Positions 7,157 through 55,580 of a DNA stretch of 64,000 nucleotides are shown one piece after another. The DNA is taken from the NCBI GenBank assembly GCA_037200965.1, contig JBBCGK010000001.1, forward strand, positions 64,001 to 128,000, in the 5' to 3' direction. The stretch's first letter is position 1. Each line of letters opens with the position of its first letter. Source of the DNA: a bacterium. GTDB taxonomy: Bacteria > Patescibacteriota > Minisyncoccia > Phycocordibacterales > Phycocordibacteraceae. Both the position numbers and the translations under genes were made by a program. The notes below the pieces were generated by a model. That model was not told where the DNA came from, did no database searches, and worked only from the letters and a program-made list of their open reading frames with translations.

Positions 7157-7258
7157 ACGAAGCGAACCCCTTGCGGGGTTCTCGGGTGCCTAACGGCAAT
7201 TTACCCGGTCACTATATCCCCTCGGGGATGAAAAGTCAATTAACGACCGAAGCGAGGC

Positions 7259-7288
7259 TTGTGGACGGCACTCCGCATCGGGTATAAT
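7259..7288 (+). promoter_or_regulatory. sigma70-like promoter (TTGTGG-N18-TATAAT) driving a noncoding transcript
   Basis: -35 ttgtgg at 7259-7264 and -10 tataat at 7283-7288; no start codon within 9 nt downstream, unlike most promoters in this window. Confidence 0.5.
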
Positions 7289-7294
7289 CGTGTC

Positions 7295-8907
<1,613 letters not shown>

Positions 8908-10847: not shown

Positions 10848-11423
10848 ATGAAAAAGATTTTCATACTGACGGGCAATCCCGATAGCGTGGAGACGCTCTC
10901 GAACGAGCTTGCCGTTGCCTATGAACAAGCCGCACGGGAAGCAGGACACGAGGTGCGAAAAGCGAATATCGGAGATCTGGCCTTCGACCCGATACTCCAC
11001 AAAGGGTATAAGGTTATCCAGGAACTCGAGCCTGATCTCAAGGTGGTGCAGGAGCACCTGCGCTGGTGCGATCACTTCGTGCTCGTCTATCCGAACTGGT
11101 GGTGCACCATGCCCGCGCTCCTCAAGGGATTCTTCGACCGCGCATGGCTTCCGGGCTTCGCATTCCATTTCCGCAAGAGCGGATGGGGATGGGATCGCCT
11201 GCTCAAAGGCAAGAGTGCGCGCGTCGTCATACTTTCGAAATCGAAGCCGTGGCAGATACGCTTTCTCTTTGGCGACTACACCAATGAGATCTCCCGCGGC
11301 ATCCTCGGCTTCTCGGGGTTCAAAGTCCGGCTTACGAAAATAGGCGGAAGCGAGAATCTTTCGGAACTTCAGAAAAGCCGGTGGCTGGGGCGCATTTCGG
11401 CGCTCGGGGTCCGGGGCACATAG
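10848..11423 (+). CDS. NAD(P)H-dependent oxidoreductase, flavodoxin-like fold (NAD(P)H dehydrogenase (quinone) family)
   Basis: [11 protein letters not shown]...[31 protein letters not shown]... matches the Flavodoxin_2 / NAD(P)H:quinone reductase N-terminal pattern. Confidence 0.7.
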
Positions 11424-11425
11424 GG

Positions 11426-12430
11426 TTGAATTCTAGCTTGAAACGCAACAACCCGTATTGAAAAGCGCATACCCGCAGGTACGCTAGGAGTGTTGAATCA
11501 CCTAAGCACCAACGGGTATGCATACACACAATACGCGCGACATGCGCGTTTCGCTAGGCGCGCTCCTGCGCGCTGGTGTGAAGAAAGCTGGGATCGCGCG
11601 GCAACTGGGCGTCCACCGCTCGACCATCTCAAGGGAGTTGAAACGGAACGCGAAGAAGAACGGGCGGTATCACGCCACGCACGCGGACGTGCGTGCGAAG
11701 GCACGCCGCATGAAGAGCAAGGAGGCGGGACGCCTCCTTGCAAACAATCAGCAGTTGGCTGACCTTGTCGAGGCACTCCTTGACCCACTCGTCTCTCCAG
11801 AGGTGATCGCACACCTTCTCGACATATCGCACGAGACGATATACGCGTGGCTATATCGCACCCGTCCTGATCTGTTGGCTCGTCTGCCGCAGCGAGGAAG
11901 GAAGCGCCGCCGATATGGCTCAAAGCGTACGCAGAAACAAGGATGGACCAAGAACGTGCGTTCCATTGAGGAGCGCACAGAACCTGGCTGGGAGGGCGAT
12001 ACCGTCAAAGGCGCAGGTCGTGAACGCATCCTCACCCACGTGCACCAGAGCTTGTATCTCGTTGCCGACCTAATCCCGAACGGCACGGCAGATGTCGTGC
12101 ATGCGGTACTGAAGTCGCATCAGAAAGTCACCGGGACCATCACGTACGACCGCGGGAGCGAGTTCGCACTCTGGCAGTTCATTGAACGTGATACCGATGC
12201 CACCGTGTACTTCGCACACGCACACCATCCGTGGGAGCGCGGGAAGAACGAGAATACCAATGGCCGCCTGCGGCGACCATTCCCCAAACGGCTGAACCTG
12301 GGTACCATATCCAAAGACGACCTTGCGGACGTGGTGGACCTCATGAACCACACGCCGCGGAAGTCTCTCTCCTGGCAGACCTCGTGCGTGCGCTTTGGGA
12401 AGGCGTGTTGCGTTTCAGATTAGAATTCAA
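11426..12430 (+). mobile_element. IS30-family insertion sequence, copy 1 (about 1005 bp)
   Basis: Left IR TTGAATTCTAGCTTGAAACGCAACAAC (11426-11452) and right IR GTGTTGCGTTTCAGATTAGAATTCAA (12405-12430) are near-perfect inverted repeats; they flank the transposase; inserted 2 bp after the TAG stop of the upstream gene. Confidence 0.85.
11518..12423 (+). CDS. IS30 family transposase
   Basis: HTH (GVHRSTISRELKRN), DDE region and the characteristic HHPWERGKNENTNGRLRR motif; stop codon lies inside the right IR. Confidence 0.9.
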   Translation: MHTHNTRDMRVSLGALLRAGVKKAGIARQLGVHRSTISRELKRNAKKNGRYHATHADVRAKARRMKSKEAGRLLANNQQLADLVEALLDPLVSPEVIAHLLDISHETIYAWLYRTRPDLLARLPQRGRKRRRYGSKRTQKQGWTKNVRSIEERTEPGWEGDTVKGAGRERILTHVHQSLYLVADLIPNGTADVVHAVLKSHQKVTGTITYDRGSEFALWQFIERDTDATVYFAHAHHPWERGKNENTNGRLRRPFPKRLNLGTISKDDLADVVDLMNHTPRKSLSWQTSCVRFGKACCVSD

Positions 12431-12473
12431 GAGGTTTTCTTGCCAAGAAGGTACTTTGATTCTACTATGGCCT

Positions 12474-12647
12474 CCGGAAGGCGGCTCCTCGTTTAGGCCC
12501 GCTCGCCCGGTGCCAGATCCTCATCACCTTTGGCCCGGCGACCTGGTCAGCGCAGTCATAGATGCTATGCGACTCCTCGGAATCTTATGTAGTCGTGAGC
12601 CGCCTTCCGTAGCTCCATATAAGGCCTCCCCGGGCCTTATATTTTTT
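12474..12647 (+). promoter_or_regulatory. structured element (13-bp long-range helix enclosing about 110 nt) plus terminator hairpin, probably the displaced 3' UTR of the upstream gene
   Basis: ccggaaggcggctc (12474-12487) pairs with gagccgccttccg (12597-12609); terminator ataaggcc-tccccg-ggccttat + atttttt at 12619-12647. Confidence 0.4.
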
Positions 12648-12700
12648 AAAGACAAGGACAGCTGGAAGCCGGGGCGGATTTACGGAGTCCGCCAAAGCAC

Positions 12701-12729
12701 TTGACAAATATTACAAGATAGAACATACT
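12701..12729 (+). promoter_or_regulatory. sigma70-like promoter (TTGACA-N17-CATACT)
   Basis: -35 ttgaca at 12701-12706 and -10 catact at 12724-12729, in an AT-rich stretch. Confidence 0.5.
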
Positions 12730-12735
12730 TTACTT

Positions 12736-12995
12736 CAGAGTGTGTGGGTTCGGCACAATGCGTGTACGCTTGGTGTAGTTTTTATGCGGGCATCAGTGTC
12801 CTCATGAAAGCCGCTCGGTCCAGTGGAAATGGAAATAATGAAGCTGGATACGGCCGAACCCACTATTCTTTAGTTTGCATGGGCGGGACGACACATTCCT
12901 TCGGATCGCGTATGGCCCCCAGTCGCCGCGATGATCGAGGTCGAGTCTGTCGTCCCGCCCCAACAAGTCGCTTCTTCGGAGGCGGCTTTCTTTTT
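12736..12995 (+). ncRNA. candidate about 260-nt structured RNA or regulatory leader upstream of ychF (identity unknown)
   Basis: Promoter upstream and UUCG-capped terminator cgcttc-ttcg-gaggcg+gctttcttttt at 12969-12995; 13-bp helix gggcgggacgaca/tgtcgtcccgccc with nested gatcgcg/cgcgatc; the overlapping 92-aa ORF has GC3 near 50% versus over 65% in genes here. Confidence 0.3.
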
Positions 12996-13021
12996 GTCCT
13001 GGAACCAGGTACTTTTGAATA

Positions 13022-14119
13022 ATGCTCAAGATCGGCATCGTGGGCCTTCCGAACGTCGGCAAGTCGACGCTTTTTAATGCGCTCACCAAGCAGGCGGTAC
13101 CCGCCGAGAATTATCCGTTCTGCACCATCGACCCTTCGGTCGGAATCGTCGGCGTTCCGGACGAGCGCGTTGCCGCCCTCGCCAAATTCTCGGGTTCCGA
13201 GAAAGTGATTCCCGCGGCGATCGAATTCGTCGACATCGCGGGACTCGTGAAAGGGGCGTCGAAAGGAGAGGGACTCGGGAACCAGTTCCTCACGCACATC
13301 CGTGAAGTGGACGCGATACTCGAGGTCGTGCGCTTTTTCGACGATGCCGACGTGCTTCATGTGCACGGGGATGTCGAGCCCGTCCGGGACATGGAAATCA
13401 TCAACCTCGAACTCGTCCTCGCCGACAGCCAGGTCGTCGTCGCCCGTCTTGACCGCCTTACGCGGGACGTAAAGGCGGGGATGAAGGAAGCAGTTGCGGA
13501 AGCTGTAGTGCTCAAGAAGCTCGAGCAGGCCCTTTCCTGCGGCACGTTCGCCAACCATGCCGGACTCACCTTGGAAGAGCTGAAGCTCGTAAAAACGCTC
13601 AACCTCCTTACCTTGAAGCCTGTCCTCTATGCCTTCAACGGCAAGTCGGGCGGGCACAACCTCGACGAGCTCAATGACGGCCGGGCCGAGCGCGCGTTCG
13701 CGTACGTGAAGGAGCAGAAAGCCGGCTATGTGCTCGTCGACGCAGCCACCGAGCGGGAACTCAACGATGTCGCCGATGATGACCGGGAAGGCTTCCGCCG
13801 GGAGCTCGGCGTTCCGGTAGACGGGCTCGGGGAGCTTATCCGCAAAAGCTACGACACCGTCGGCCTCATTTCATACTTTACGACCGGACCCAAGGAAACC
13901 CGCGCGTGGACCGTTTCGAAGGGAAGCACGGCTCCGGTTGCCGGAGCCGCAATTCATACCGATTTCCTCGATAAATTCATCCGCGCGGAAGTTATCGCTG
14001 CCAAGGATCTTCTCCTGGCGGGCTCGTACGCCGCCGCGCGGGAGAAAGGTCTGGTGCGCACGGAAGGGAAGGAATACGTGGTACAGGACGGGGACGTGAT
14101 GGTGTTCCTGCACGGTTGA
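13022..14119 (+). CDS. ychF: ribosome-binding ATPase YchF (Obg-family GTPase)
   Basis: P-loop GIVGLPNVGKSTLFNALT; C-terminal TGS-like region; 365 aa. Confidence 0.9.
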   Translation: MLKIGIVGLPNVGKSTLFNALTKQAVPAENYPFCTIDPSVGIVGVPDERVAALAKFSGSEKVIPAAIEFVDIAGLVKGASKGEGLGNQFLTHIREVDAILEVVRFFDDADVLHVHGDVEPVRDMEIINLELVLADSQVVVARLDRLTRDVKAGMKEAVAEAVVLKKLEQALSCGTFANHAGLTLEELKLVKTLNLLTLKPVLYAFNGKSGGHNLDELNDGRAERAFAYVKEQKAGYVLVDAATERELNDVADDDREGFRRELGVPVDGLGELIRKSYDTVGLISYFTTGPKETRAWTVSKGSTAPVAGAAIHTDFLDKFIRAEVIAAKDLLLAGSYAAAREKGLVRTEGKEYVVQDGDVMVFLHG

Positions 14120-29492: not shown

Positions 29493-29604
29493 GCGGATAT
29501 CTTAGCCGAATGTGTAGGGAATCGCTAAGAGCTTGACAAGATATCAACTTCCAACTACTATATTTACGGTAACCCTGAGGAGGCGCCAGAGTGGCGCAAG
29601 ATCG

Positions 29605-29845: not shown

Positions 29846-31750
29846 ATGATCGTTTCCGAAGTGCGAAGCCGATATTTGAAATTCTTCGAGAAGCGCGGAC
29901 ACGCGATCATCCCGAGCGCGCCCATCGTTCCCGGGAACGACCCCACCACCTTGTTTACCAGTAGCGGCATGCAGCCCCTCGTTCCGTACCTTCTCGGCAA
30001 AGACCATCCGGCCGGGAAACGCGTCGCGAATTCCCAGATGAGTTTCCGCGCGGGAGACATCGAGGAAGTGGGTGATAACCGCCACACGACATTCTTCGAA
30101 ATGCTCGGCAACTGGTCGCTCGGCGACTATTTCAAGAAGGAGCAGCTTCCGTGGTTCTTCGAATTCCTCACAAGCGCGGAAGAAGGACTCGGGCTCGATC
30201 CCGCGAAGCTCTATGTCACCGTTTTCGCAGGCGACAAAGAGGCTGGAATGGAGGCCGATATGGAAGCGGTCGGAATATGGAAGGAGCTTTTCAAAACCAA
30301 GGGGATCGATGCGGCGTTCTCGGATATAGGAAGCGAAGAGGCGGGGTATGAAAAAGGAATGGGTCCGAACGACCGTATCTTTGCCTATGACGCGAAGAAA
30401 AATTGGTGGAGCAGGGCGGGGGTTCCGGCGAACATGCCTCCCGGAGAACCCGGCGGCCCGGATTCCGAAGTCTTCTACGACTTCGGGCTTCCTCATGACC
30501 CGAAATGGGGTCCGAACTGCCATCCAAACTGCGACTGCGGTCGTTTCGTCGAGATCGGGAACTCGGTCTTCATGCAGTTTATCAAGAACCCCGACGGATC
30601 GTTCTCGAACCTTCCGAAGCAGAACGTCGACTTCGGCGGGGGCCTCGAGCGGCTCACGTTCGCCACGCTTGGCACCCCGGACGCTTTCCTCATCGATGTC
30701 TTCGACGCGGCGCGGACAGTGCTTGAGTCCAGGACCGGGAAGAAATACGCGGAAGAAGAGAGCGTGACGCGCTCGATGCGCATTATCCTCGATCATATGC
30801 GCGCCGCGTCCTTCATGCTCGCGGAAGGCGTTACCCCTTCGAACACCGAGGCGGGGTACGTACTTCGCCGTCTTATCCGCCGCGCGATACGTGAAGCCGA
30901 CCGGCTCGGAATCAAGGACGCAGTGCTCGCGGATGTAGCTAAAGGATACGGCGAGGCGTATGCGGGACAGTATCCTCATGTGCTCGCCGCAAGCGAGGCG
31001 ATCCGGGATGATCTCGCGAAAGAAGAGGAGCGGTTCCGCAAGACGCTCGCAGGAGGCATGCGGGAGCTTGAGAAGATGGGGAGCGACATCGATGCTTTTA
31101 CCCTCTTCACTTCCTATGGCTTTCCGCTCGAACTCACCGAGGAGATCGCGAAGGAACGCGGCATCGCGCTTGATATGAAGAAAGTGAACGAACAGATGAC
31201 CAAGCATCAGGAAGAATCCCGCGCGGGAGGCGCGCAGCGTTTCGCCGGAGGACTTGCCGACCATTCGGAACAGACGGTCAAATACCACACCGCGCACCAC
31301 CTTCTCCTTGCGGCGCTTCAGAAAGTTCTCGGGCCTGACGTGAAGCAGCGGGGAAGCAATATCACGAGCGAGCGCCTGCGCATCGATTTTTCATACGGAC
31401 AGAAGGTGACGCCGGAGCAGCTTACGGAAGCCGAGGACATTGTGAACGAGATCACCGCGCAGGAACTGCCGGTGACAAGAACGGTGATGCCGAAGGAAGA
31501 GGCCGAGAAGCTCGGCGCACAAATGGAATTCGGGGTGAAATATCCGGATATGGTCTCGGTATATTCCGTGGGGCCAAAAGATGCGACCGAGGCTGACCCG
31601 AAGATCGGCGAAGCATTTTCGCTTGAGTTCTGCGGCGGGCCGCACGTGGCAAACACGAGAGAGCTTGGCGAAGGCGGAAAGCGCTTCAAGATCCAGAAGG
31701 AGGAGGCTTCCTCCGCAGGAGTCCGCCGCATCAAAGCAGTGCTTGCATAA
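29846..31750 (+). CDS. alaS: alanine--tRNA ligase, short form lacking the C-terminal C-Ala domain (634 aa)
   Basis: Class II catalytic core; editing-domain zinc motifs TAHHLL (HxxxH) and CGGPHV (CxxxH) near the C-terminus. Confidence 0.9.
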   Translation: MIVSEVRSRYLKFFEKRGHAIIPSAPIVPGNDPTTLFTSSGMQPLVPYLLGKDHPAGKRVANSQMSFRAGDIEEVGDNRHTTFFEMLGNWSLGDYFKKEQLPWFFEFLTSAEEGLGLDPAKLYVTVFAGDKEAGMEADMEAVGIWKELFKTKGIDAAFSDIGSEEAGYEKGMGPNDRIFAYDAKKNWWSRAGVPANMPPGEPGGPDSEVFYDFGLPHDPKWGPNCHPNCDCGRFVEIGNSVFMQFIKNPDGSFSNLPKQNVDFGGGLERLTFATLGTPDAFLIDVFDAARTVLESRTGKKYAEEESVTRSMRIILDHMRAASFMLAEGVTPSNTEAGYVLRRLIRRAIREADRLGIKDAVLADVAKGYGEAYAGQYPHVLAASEAIRDDLAKEEERFRKTLAGGMRELEKMGSDIDAFTLFTSYGFPLELTEEIAKERGIALDMKKVNEQMTKHQEESRAGGAQRFAGGLADHSEQTVKYHTAHHLLLAALQKVLGPDVKQRGSNITSERLRIDFSYGQKVTPEQLTEAEDIVNEITAQELPVTRTVMPKEEAEKLGAQMEFGVKYPDMVSVYSVGPKDATEADPKIGEAFSLEFCGGPHVANTRELGEGGKRFKIQKEEASSAGVRRIKAVLA

Positions 31751-45745: not shown

Positions 45746-45828
45746 GCGTCGGTGGCAGAGTGGTCAATTGCAACAGGCTGTAAACCTGTCGACTTCGGTC
45801 TACGGAGGTTCGAATCCTCCCCGGCGCA
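45746..45828 (+). tRNA. tRNA-Tyr (anticodon GUA), type II with long variable arm; CCA not encoded
   Basis: Acceptor GCGUCGG/CCGGCGC (one G-U), U8, D-arm GCAG...UUGC, anticodon stem ACAGG/CCUGU with loop CUGUAAA, 14-nt variable arm, T-arm GGAGG-UUCGAAU-CCUCC, discriminator A. Confidence 0.9.
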
Positions 45829-54564: not shown

Positions 54565-55580
54565 TCGAATTCCAGCCTGAAACGCAACAACTGACTTCTT
54601 GAAAAGCGCATACCCGCAGGTACGCTAGGAGCGTTGAACCACCTAAGCGCCATACGGGTATGCACACGCATCTTAACCGCGACCGCAGGGTCGCGCTAGC
54701 CGCTTTGAAAAAAGCGGGAATGAACCAGTCAAGAATCGCGAAGGAGCTCGGCGTACACCGCTCGACGATCAGCCGGGAGCTCCTGCGAAATGCACAGAAG
54801 AACGGTCGATACCATTCGATATGCGCGGATCGCCTCGCGCGCGGCCGAAGGAAAGGGTCGAAGAGAGAATCGCGCCTCCTTGAGAATGATGCGGGTCTGG
54901 AGACGCTCGTCGAGGCGCTCCTCGATCCTCTGGTATCTCCCGAACTGATCGCGCACGAACTCGGTATCAGCCACGAGACCATATACGCATGGATCTCGCG
55001 CTCAAGGCGCGATTTGCTGCCGCGGCTTCCGCAGCGCGGGAAGAAACGGAGACGATACGGCTTAAAACGCTCGAAGAAACAAGGCTGGACACGGCAGGTG
55101 CGCTGCATCGGGGAGCGGCCCGAAGCAGGAGAGAATTGGGAGGGCGATACCGTCAAAGGACGGACGAGAGCGAGACTGCTCGCGCACGTCGAGCGGCGAA
55201 GCCTCTATACGGTCGCCGATCTCATGCCGAACGGTACTGCAGATTCGGTGCATGCAGTATTGAAAAAACATCAGAAGATATCCGGTACGGTCACGTATGA
55301 CCGCGGCAGCGAGTTCGCGCTCTGGCAGATGATCGAGCGCGATACCGGCGCAGCGATCTATTTTGCCGATCCGCACCACCCCTGGCAGCGCGGGAAGAAC
55401 GAGAACACTAACGGAAGACTGAGAAGAATGTACCCGAAGCGTTTCGACTTCGGTACGATACGGCAACGGGACCTCGACGCCGTGGTGTCGCTCATGAACC
55501 ACACCAAGCGAAAGTCCCTCTCTTGGCGGACGCCGTGTTCGCTCTTCAGGGGTGAGTGTTGCGATTCAGATTAGAATTTA
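54565..55580 (+). mobile_element. IS30-family insertion sequence, copy 2 (about 1016 bp), inserted in the ftsW-murG intergenic region
   Basis: Left IR ...GAATTCCAGCCTGAAACGCAACAAC and right IR GTGTTGCGATTCAGATTAGAATTTAA; same orientation as copy 1; about 85-90% IR identity. Confidence 0.85.
54660..55574 (+). CDS. IS30 family transposase (about 70% identical to copy 1)
   Basis: GVHRSTISRELLRN HTH; HHPWQRGKNENTNGRLRR; 304 aa. Confidence 0.9.
   Translation: MHTHLNRDRRVALAALKKAGMNQSRIAKELGVHRSTISRELLRNAQKNGRYHSICADRLARGRRKGSKRESRLLENDAGLETLVEALLDPLVSPELIAHELGISHETIYAWISRSRRDLLPRLPQRGKKRRRYGLKRSKKQGWTRQVRCIGERPEAGENWEGDTVKGRTRARLLAHVERRSLYTVADLMPNGTADSVHAVLKKHQKISGTVTYDRGSEFALWQMIERDTGAAIYFADPHHPWQRGKNENTNGRLRRMYPKRFDFGTIRQRDLDAVVSLMNHTKRKSLSWRTPCSLFRGECCDSD

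Follow-up and report, generated by a model that had tools for sequence, protein, structure and literature searches.

A candidate lineage-specific small RNA gene between a flavodoxin-like gene and a putatively leaderless ychF in a patescibacterial genome

The DNA directly upstream of ychF probably encodes a stand-alone, lineage-specific structured RNA of the sRNA type (here called unit B), which is non-coding and not a leader of ychF. The evidence was drawn from a stretch of 64,000 nucleotides (the window) and from its comparison with related genomes; it comprises promoter and terminator motifs around a body without coding signatures, a fold that favors the plus strand, a conserved -10 box of ychF itself, and the presence or absence of the unit among relatives. 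The features of the region are listed in Table 1.

According to this reading, RNA polymerase would start at approximately 12736 from the TTGACA-N17-CATACT promoter, and the transcript of about 260 nt would fold into three modules that form independently, namely a four-way junction, a rod of 33 bp, and a terminator with a UUCG cap, with release at the U-tract (approximately 12995-12998). The ychF gene would be served by a promoter of its own with the TACTTT box (13010-13015) and give rise to a leaderless mRNA; the terminator may insulate the gene from upstream transcription, and the T-tract would double as the -35 region of this promoter. The RNA body would be lineage-specific and fill a variable slot downstream of the flavodoxin-like gene and upstream of ychF. 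In some Paceibacteria-like relatives, this slot probably holds other, unrelated structured promoter-to-terminator RNAs; it is empty in the closest ones. We infer expression of the RNA, its exact ends, and any trans-acting function.

Patescibacteria (CPR) are episymbionts with reduced genomes, and RNA-based regulation in this group is, to our knowledge, essentially uncharted. A search of the literature retrieved neither sRNAs described in Patescibacteria nor a leader RNA of ychF, and unit B, if expressed, would join a very small number of candidate sRNAs in these bacteria. Its general importance is probably limited, because it is confined to a strain or lineage and sister genomes do without it. 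Two by-products of the analysis are firmer: the genome appears to start most of its genes as leaderless mRNAs, and ychF is located behind a conserved terminator-promoter junction.

Setting and transcription signals of the spacer

Flavodoxin-like gene and ychF are now separated not only by their native spacer but also by an IS30-family element (11426-12430), which starts 2 nt past the stop codon of the Flavodoxin_2 gene. The element ends at 12430; the native spacer therefore comprises positions 12431-13021 (591 nt), and unit B represents its 3' half. Public short-read assemblies break inside the element, exactly at its end. A second, diverged copy of the IS30-family element is present at approximately 54567-55575, likewise with 25-bp terminal inverted repeats; a 3-bp target duplication (AGG) is probable for these copies. 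That unit B is part of the insertion sequence was rejected, because the latter stops at 12430 and the unit lies outside the inverted repeats; that it is repeated together with the element was also rejected, because the second copy does not have such a flank.

Table 1. Features of the region upstream of ychF (positions refer to the window)
Feature	Position	Strand	Basis
Flavodoxin_2 / FMN-reductase-like gene, conserved upstream neighbor of ychF in the clade	10848..11423	+	Pfam match
IS30-family insertion sequence with 25-bp terminal inverted repeats	11426..12430	+	NF033563, 186.7 bits
Native spacer between flavodoxin-like gene and ychF, containing units A and B	12431..13021	+	IS boundaries; z = -6.4 (+) vs -2.5 (-)
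Unit A: promoter TTGCCA-N17-TACTAT (12440-12468), structured RNA, and terminator	12440..12648	+	z = -6.09
Sigma-70-type promoter of unit B, TTGACA-N17-CATACT	12701..12729	+	Score 10/12; predicted start at approximately 12736
Domain 1 of unit B: four-way junction closed by a 17-18 bp helix with the core GUGGGUUCGGC/GCCGAACCCAC	12737..12869	+	Predicted fold
Domain 2 of unit B: rod-like hairpin of 80 nt with 33 pairs and a CCCCA apical loop	12881..12960	+	Predicted fold
Intrinsic terminator: 10-bp stem, UUCG loop, and U-tract	12965..12998	+	Pairing probability 0.997-1.0 at 8 of 10 positions
-10 box of ychF, TACTTT, at -12 to -7 from the ATG (leaderless-type promoter)	13010..13015	+	Position and conservation in relatives
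ychF (redox-regulated ATPase YchF)	13022..14119	+	TIGR00092, 418.5 bits

An identical YchF is encoded in GCA_015655515.1 and in two Logan assemblies, and the spacer DNA is the same in three other assemblies of the strain except for one SNP; the strain is represented in the read sets SRR10968228 and SRR28211700. Over 740 nt, the sole difference between the window and the NCBI assembly (L161) is 12994 T>G, which falls in the U-tract of the terminator and thus also at the -35 position of the ychF promoter.

The promoter and the terminator proposed for unit B by the initial annotation were both recovered. The promoter is one of eight sites in the window (both strands) with a score of at least 10/12. 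All eight are intergenic, although intergenic DNA accounts for only 12.7% of the window, and such matches therefore behave like real promoters in this genome. The stem of the terminator (12965-12988) is followed by TCTTTTTGTC and ends 33 nt upstream of the ychF ATG (13022). Likewise, the AT-richer segment noticed between these signals is real, with a GC content of 0.465-0.485 across 12600-12899 compared to 0.55-0.62 in the flanks. Unit B has the makeup of a stand-alone sRNA gene: its own promoter and an intrinsic terminator around a non-coding body. Another of the 10/12 promoters (TTGACA-N17-TACTAT, 29533-29561) is located approximately 285 nt upstream of a gene for a 634-aa protein at 29846; the region in between is moderately structured on the plus strand (z = -3.1) and is a candidate for another long leader or sRNA.

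Unit A is located directly after the end of the insertion sequence and directly upstream of unit B. It is closed by a helix of 13-16 bp (12472-12487 pairing with 12597-12612) and has a terminator at 12617-12642 followed by T6; the strand symmetry of its fold makes the direction of transcription less certain. Most of the spacer is flanked by a direct repeat of 11-12 nt, AGGTACTTT(T)GA, at 12449-12459 and 13007-13018, whose second copy includes the -10 box of ychF. The repeat could be a duplication or insertion scar or a product of chance.

Predicted fold and coding potential of unit B

The RNA predicted for positions 12736-13000 has a minimum free energy (MFE) of -120.1 kcal/mol and a z-score of -6.17 on the plus strand, compared to -3.02 on the minus strand. 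The fold sets in at 12737, coinciding with the predicted start of transcription, and its modules are cleanly separated. The preference for the plus strand is evident from the G-U pairs, which number 15 on the plus strand but only one on the minus strand for the entire unit, and eight versus none for domain 1 (MFE -56.0 versus -40.1 kcal/mol). When the structure is mirrored onto the minus strand, 48 kcal/mol are lost. Contrary to what would be expected for simple DNA palindromes, this asymmetry of the modeled fold points to selection at the RNA level.

The 13-bp helix described in the initial annotation is real and extends to 18 nt (12881-12898 with 12943-12960). The helix nested within it also exists, but not as the contiguous 7-mer gatcgcg/cgcgatc; it comprises 6 bp (AUCGCG/CGCGAU), followed by a 2-nt bulge and further pairs.

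Among 16 intergenic regions folded on both strands, the entire spacer is the top outlier (z = -6.4, plus strand). A sliding scan of z-scores in 150-nt segments was not aligned to features and split the domains of unit B; its strongest fold in the window (z = -8, 1604-1700) represents two adjacent terminators of convergent genes and is ordinary. A further non-coding region of about 380 nt is present inside the ATP synthase operon (7157-7537), upstream of atpD (true start near 7538); it contains a TATAAT box (7284-7289), a structured RNA (z = -4.1), and a perfect hairpin of 12-14 bp (7452-7479), and yielded no match in Rfam.

Unit B had been annotated as an unidentified non-coding RNA or riboregulatory leader, and a comparison with Rfam did not assign it to any known family. 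Within the window, a scan with Rfam 15 at the gathering thresholds returned only tRNA-Tyr, which was also the only hit of ARAGORN (at 45746). When the region 12300-13200 was searched at E <= 10, the best match (suhB, 17.3 bits against a threshold of 41) covered only the terminator and was accompanied by two chance matches; a scan of 16 related loci yielded nothing relevant. With the spacer as the query, blastn, nhmmer, and tblastx gave no match in about 170 related loci, nor did similarity searches of the remaining window, distant blastn searches of phages and plasmids, or two pattern scans of viral contigs. Single-sequence covariance models of domain 1 (R2) and domain 2 (R1) matched only themselves over 565 kb. 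In the absence of a homolog of the RNA body, domains 1 and 2 are therefore without support from covariation. Duplex prediction for unit B as an sRNA against the 5' ends of the 66 genes in the window produced no outlier, and ychF was not a target.

The region also contains an open reading frame of 92 codons (GTG at 12744), whose TAA stop overlaps the ATG of ychF as TAATG. The arrangement would be consistent with a small protein translationally coupled to ychF or, since the mRNAs of type I toxins are structured, lineage-specific, and intergenic as well, with a type I toxin-antitoxin-like locus encoding a small hydrophobic peptide. The other properties of the frame, however, make a coding function very improbable. 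Its GC3 is 0.457, whereas that of ychF, leuS, atpD, and the flavodoxin-like gene ranges from 0.70 to 0.77, and its codon log-odds amount to -30 bits, whereas those of the accepted genes are all positive (+0.1 to +0.7 bits per codon). The 92-aa product has no homolog among 5.8 billion proteins and no Pfam match, and no gene was called in three public assemblies that carry the same sequence. Moreover, the intrinsic terminator is located within the frame, which has neither a Shine-Dalgarno motif nor a start codon at leaderless spacing from a -10 box. A scan for type I toxins among ORFs of at least 12 aa revealed none with a convincing transmembrane-like segment or leaderless spacing, and the spacer RNAs of relatives carry small ORFs at their 5' ends that are unrelated to one another. 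Together with the strand-specific fold, these results corroborate the earlier assessment that a non-coding RNA is likelier than a 92-aa protein.

The ychF junction among relatives and alternative explanations

The best matches of YchF in species-representative genomes are at most 73% identical and all stem from metagenome-assembled genomes of Patescibacteria/Paceibacteria; metagenome scans did not exceed this value, and a protein search retrieved closer relatives with 76-87% identity. The flavodoxin-like gene and ychF are adjacent across the clade, but the gap between them varies from 14 to about 1640 nt. It is only 14-18 nt long and devoid of the element in L164 and L165 (YchF 86-87% identical), in L166 and L167 (81%), and in L168 (76%), and measures 220 nt in P0004 (80%; JGI 3300045391). 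A neighbor-joining tree places L164 and L165 as sisters of the window, followed by L166. Judged by this topology, unit B would be either a gain in the lineage of the window or lost at least twice. Its absence from the sister genomes L164, L165, and L166 indicates that the element is dispensable.

In other relatives, the slot between the two genes is occupied by inserted protein genes or by structured non-coding spacers. The spacers of L001, L003, and L005 have z-scores of -4 to -6, with a plus-strand bias of the fold in L001 and L003, and the spacer of L172 (432 nt) has a predicted fold of -160.5 kcal/mol. A promoter is located just past the flavodoxin-like gene, at a nearly equal offset, in the window, L005, and L172; weaker matches at that offset were read by eye in L001 and L003. 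The initial annotation had suggested a comparison of the ychF upstream region, which recovered only the 3' terminator-promoter module: domain 2 base, terminator, T-tract, and -10 box align with L005 or L003 (z-scores of the global alignments, 3.7 and 4.3), whereas the RNA body was not found elsewhere and the element is missing from the closest relatives. The spacer of L005 shares the base of domain 2 (GGGCGGG/CCCGCC).

The junction was compared in the window, L001, L003, L005, L169, L171, and L084. Its order is conserved: a terminator, the CTTTCTTTTT tract, a GTAnnnT box, and the ATG, where the CTTTCTTTTT tail coincides with the -35 position of ychF (12989-13021 in the window). The distance from the end of the terminator stem to the ychF ATG is 33-35 nt in five genomes (window, L001, L003, L005, and L169). 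In L172 (YchF 76% identical), a terminator and a -10 box at approximately 1890-2000 precede a pseudo-start of ychF (ATGTTGAAGATAGGC, encoding MLKIG) that lies about 85 nt before the real one, which indicates a duplication or rearrangement at the junction.

The contention that ychF has no obvious promoter of its own turned out to be wrong. The TACTTT box has counterparts in the relatives (TAAGGT, TACAGT, TAGTTT, TACGTT, TAAAGT, and TAAGTT), either in the identical position or shifted upstream by a few bases, and is kept both with and without a spacer. The invariance of the T-A-N3-T positions, as opposed to a Shine-Dalgarno-like core, favors its interpretation as a -10 box. The position of the box is typical of the genome: among the 66 genes in the window, nine have a TAnnnT box at exactly -12 (0.39 expected per position) and 17 have one at -15 to -11, with a mode at -12, whereas a Shine-Dalgarno-like motif precedes only eight. 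The peak at -12 and the rarity of Shine-Dalgarno motifs therefore make most genes look leaderless. YchF of Escherichia coli has been reported to inhibit the translation of leaderless mRNAs (PMC8138138; also cited in PMC12641178), which makes the leaderless architecture around ychF mildly interesting but does not by itself tie the gene to unit B.

The initial annotation had also considered that unit B is a cis-regulatory 5' leader, i.e., that ychF is transcribed from the promoter at 12701 and that the terminator acts as a conditional attenuator (a riboswitch or a protein- or ribosome-mediated device). This would agree with the succession of promoter, structured RNA, and terminator directly upstream of ychF on the same strand, but is quite improbable in view of the conserved -10 box at leaderless position, which suggests that ychF does not depend on the distant promoter. 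The terminator forms with a probability of approximately 1; blocking it in silico costs 13.3 kcal/mol, and no alternative pairing emerges that would provide mutually exclusive terminator and antiterminator folds. A single 9-nt perfect complement (12806-12814 versus the 3' arm of the terminator, 12982-12990) could in principle compete with the terminator, but pairing with the 3' arm is kinetically unfavorable, chance alone would yield about 0.45 repeats of this kind in the spacer (an estimate), and no complementarity to the terminator arms recurs among the relatives. Sequence and covariance-model searches detected no conserved sensor domain upstream of ychF, Rfam gave no aptamer, and in the closest relatives, ychF follows its 14-18 nt junction without any leader. 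Given the -10 box of ychF itself and a terminator that is predicted to form practically always and has no conserved antiterminator, insulation of ychF is a better reading of the terminator than attenuation. The main rival to the sRNA reading is a different one, namely that the RNA body is functionless. The spacer would then be filler derived from recombination or mobile elements at a rearrangement hot spot and transcribed only incidentally, with selection acting solely on the terminator-promoter junction. Many features of the slot agree with such an origin: its absence from sister genomes and its variable length and unrelated content in other relatives (including inserted genes), the IS30 insertion at the same junction, the duplicated pseudo-start in L172, the direct repeat around most of the spacer, and the restriction of alignable sequence to the 3' module. 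A structured but functionless insertion would look similar to unit B. We nevertheless consider filler rather unlikely, because the extreme fold with its G-U asymmetry is unlike that of DNA palindromes, starts at the predicted transcription start, and separates cleanly into modules; moreover, a near-consensus promoter has been maintained, and the spacers of several relatives are also unusually structured (z = -4 to -7).

In a more speculative and less likely interpretation, the slot hosts a syntenic, fast-evolving family of structured RNAs in a Paceibacteria clade, selected on structure, with unit B as one member. Each RNA would have a conserved promoter just past the upstream gene, and its conserved terminator would be fused to the promoter of leaderless ychF. 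Selection might act via the binding of a protein or RNA polymerase, processing by RNase III, or a control tied to the role of YchF in leaderless translation (PMC8138138).

Comparison with known systems

Attenuation leaders and riboswitches (e.g., the T-box) share with unit B the order of promoter, structured RNA, terminator, and gene on one strand. Unlike these, unit B has neither a conserved aptamer nor an antiterminator, is followed by a gene with its own promoter, and is missing from the closest relatives. Like unit B (approximately 260 nt), 6S RNA (ssrS) is a structured RNA of a few hundred nucleotides that is poorly conserved and found mainly by synteny, but it forms a rod with a central bubble, whereas unit B is predicted to combine a four-way junction with an almost perfect rod. 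An assignment to 6S RNA was rejected, given the two separate domains plus terminator and the absence of a match to the 6S families of Rfam at E <= 10.

Several other elements were considered and dismissed. The msr-msd RNA of retrons would require a reverse transcriptase downstream, but the next gene encodes YchF (TIGR00092). The bases flanking domain 2 do not contain the RYYYAAC/GTTRRRY core motifs of integron attC sites; the neighboring insertion sequence belongs to the IS30 family, which speaks against the bridge RNA of IS110 and the omega RNA of TnpB; and a type I toxin-antitoxin locus would need a start signal ahead of a short ORF for a hydrophobic toxin, of which the scan described above gave no convincing example.

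The boundary between unit B and ychF resembles insulating terminator-promoter junctions, with a T-tract at the -35 position of the next promoter and a stem that ends 33-35 nt from the ATG in five genomes. It differs from them in that the downstream mRNA is apparently leaderless and the terminated unit is a variable non-coding RNA. The preferred reading has its parallel in bacterial sRNA genes bounded by a sigma-70 promoter and a Rho-independent terminator. Compared to generic sRNAs, unit B is unusually heavily paired, has few single-stranded seed candidates, and occurs in a host from the Patescibacteria (CPR). Like them, it has a non-coding body that measures a few hundred nucleotides and forms stable stem-loops, ends in a hairpin followed by a U-tract, and lies between genes; its lineage specificity is a trait of many bacterial sRNAs.
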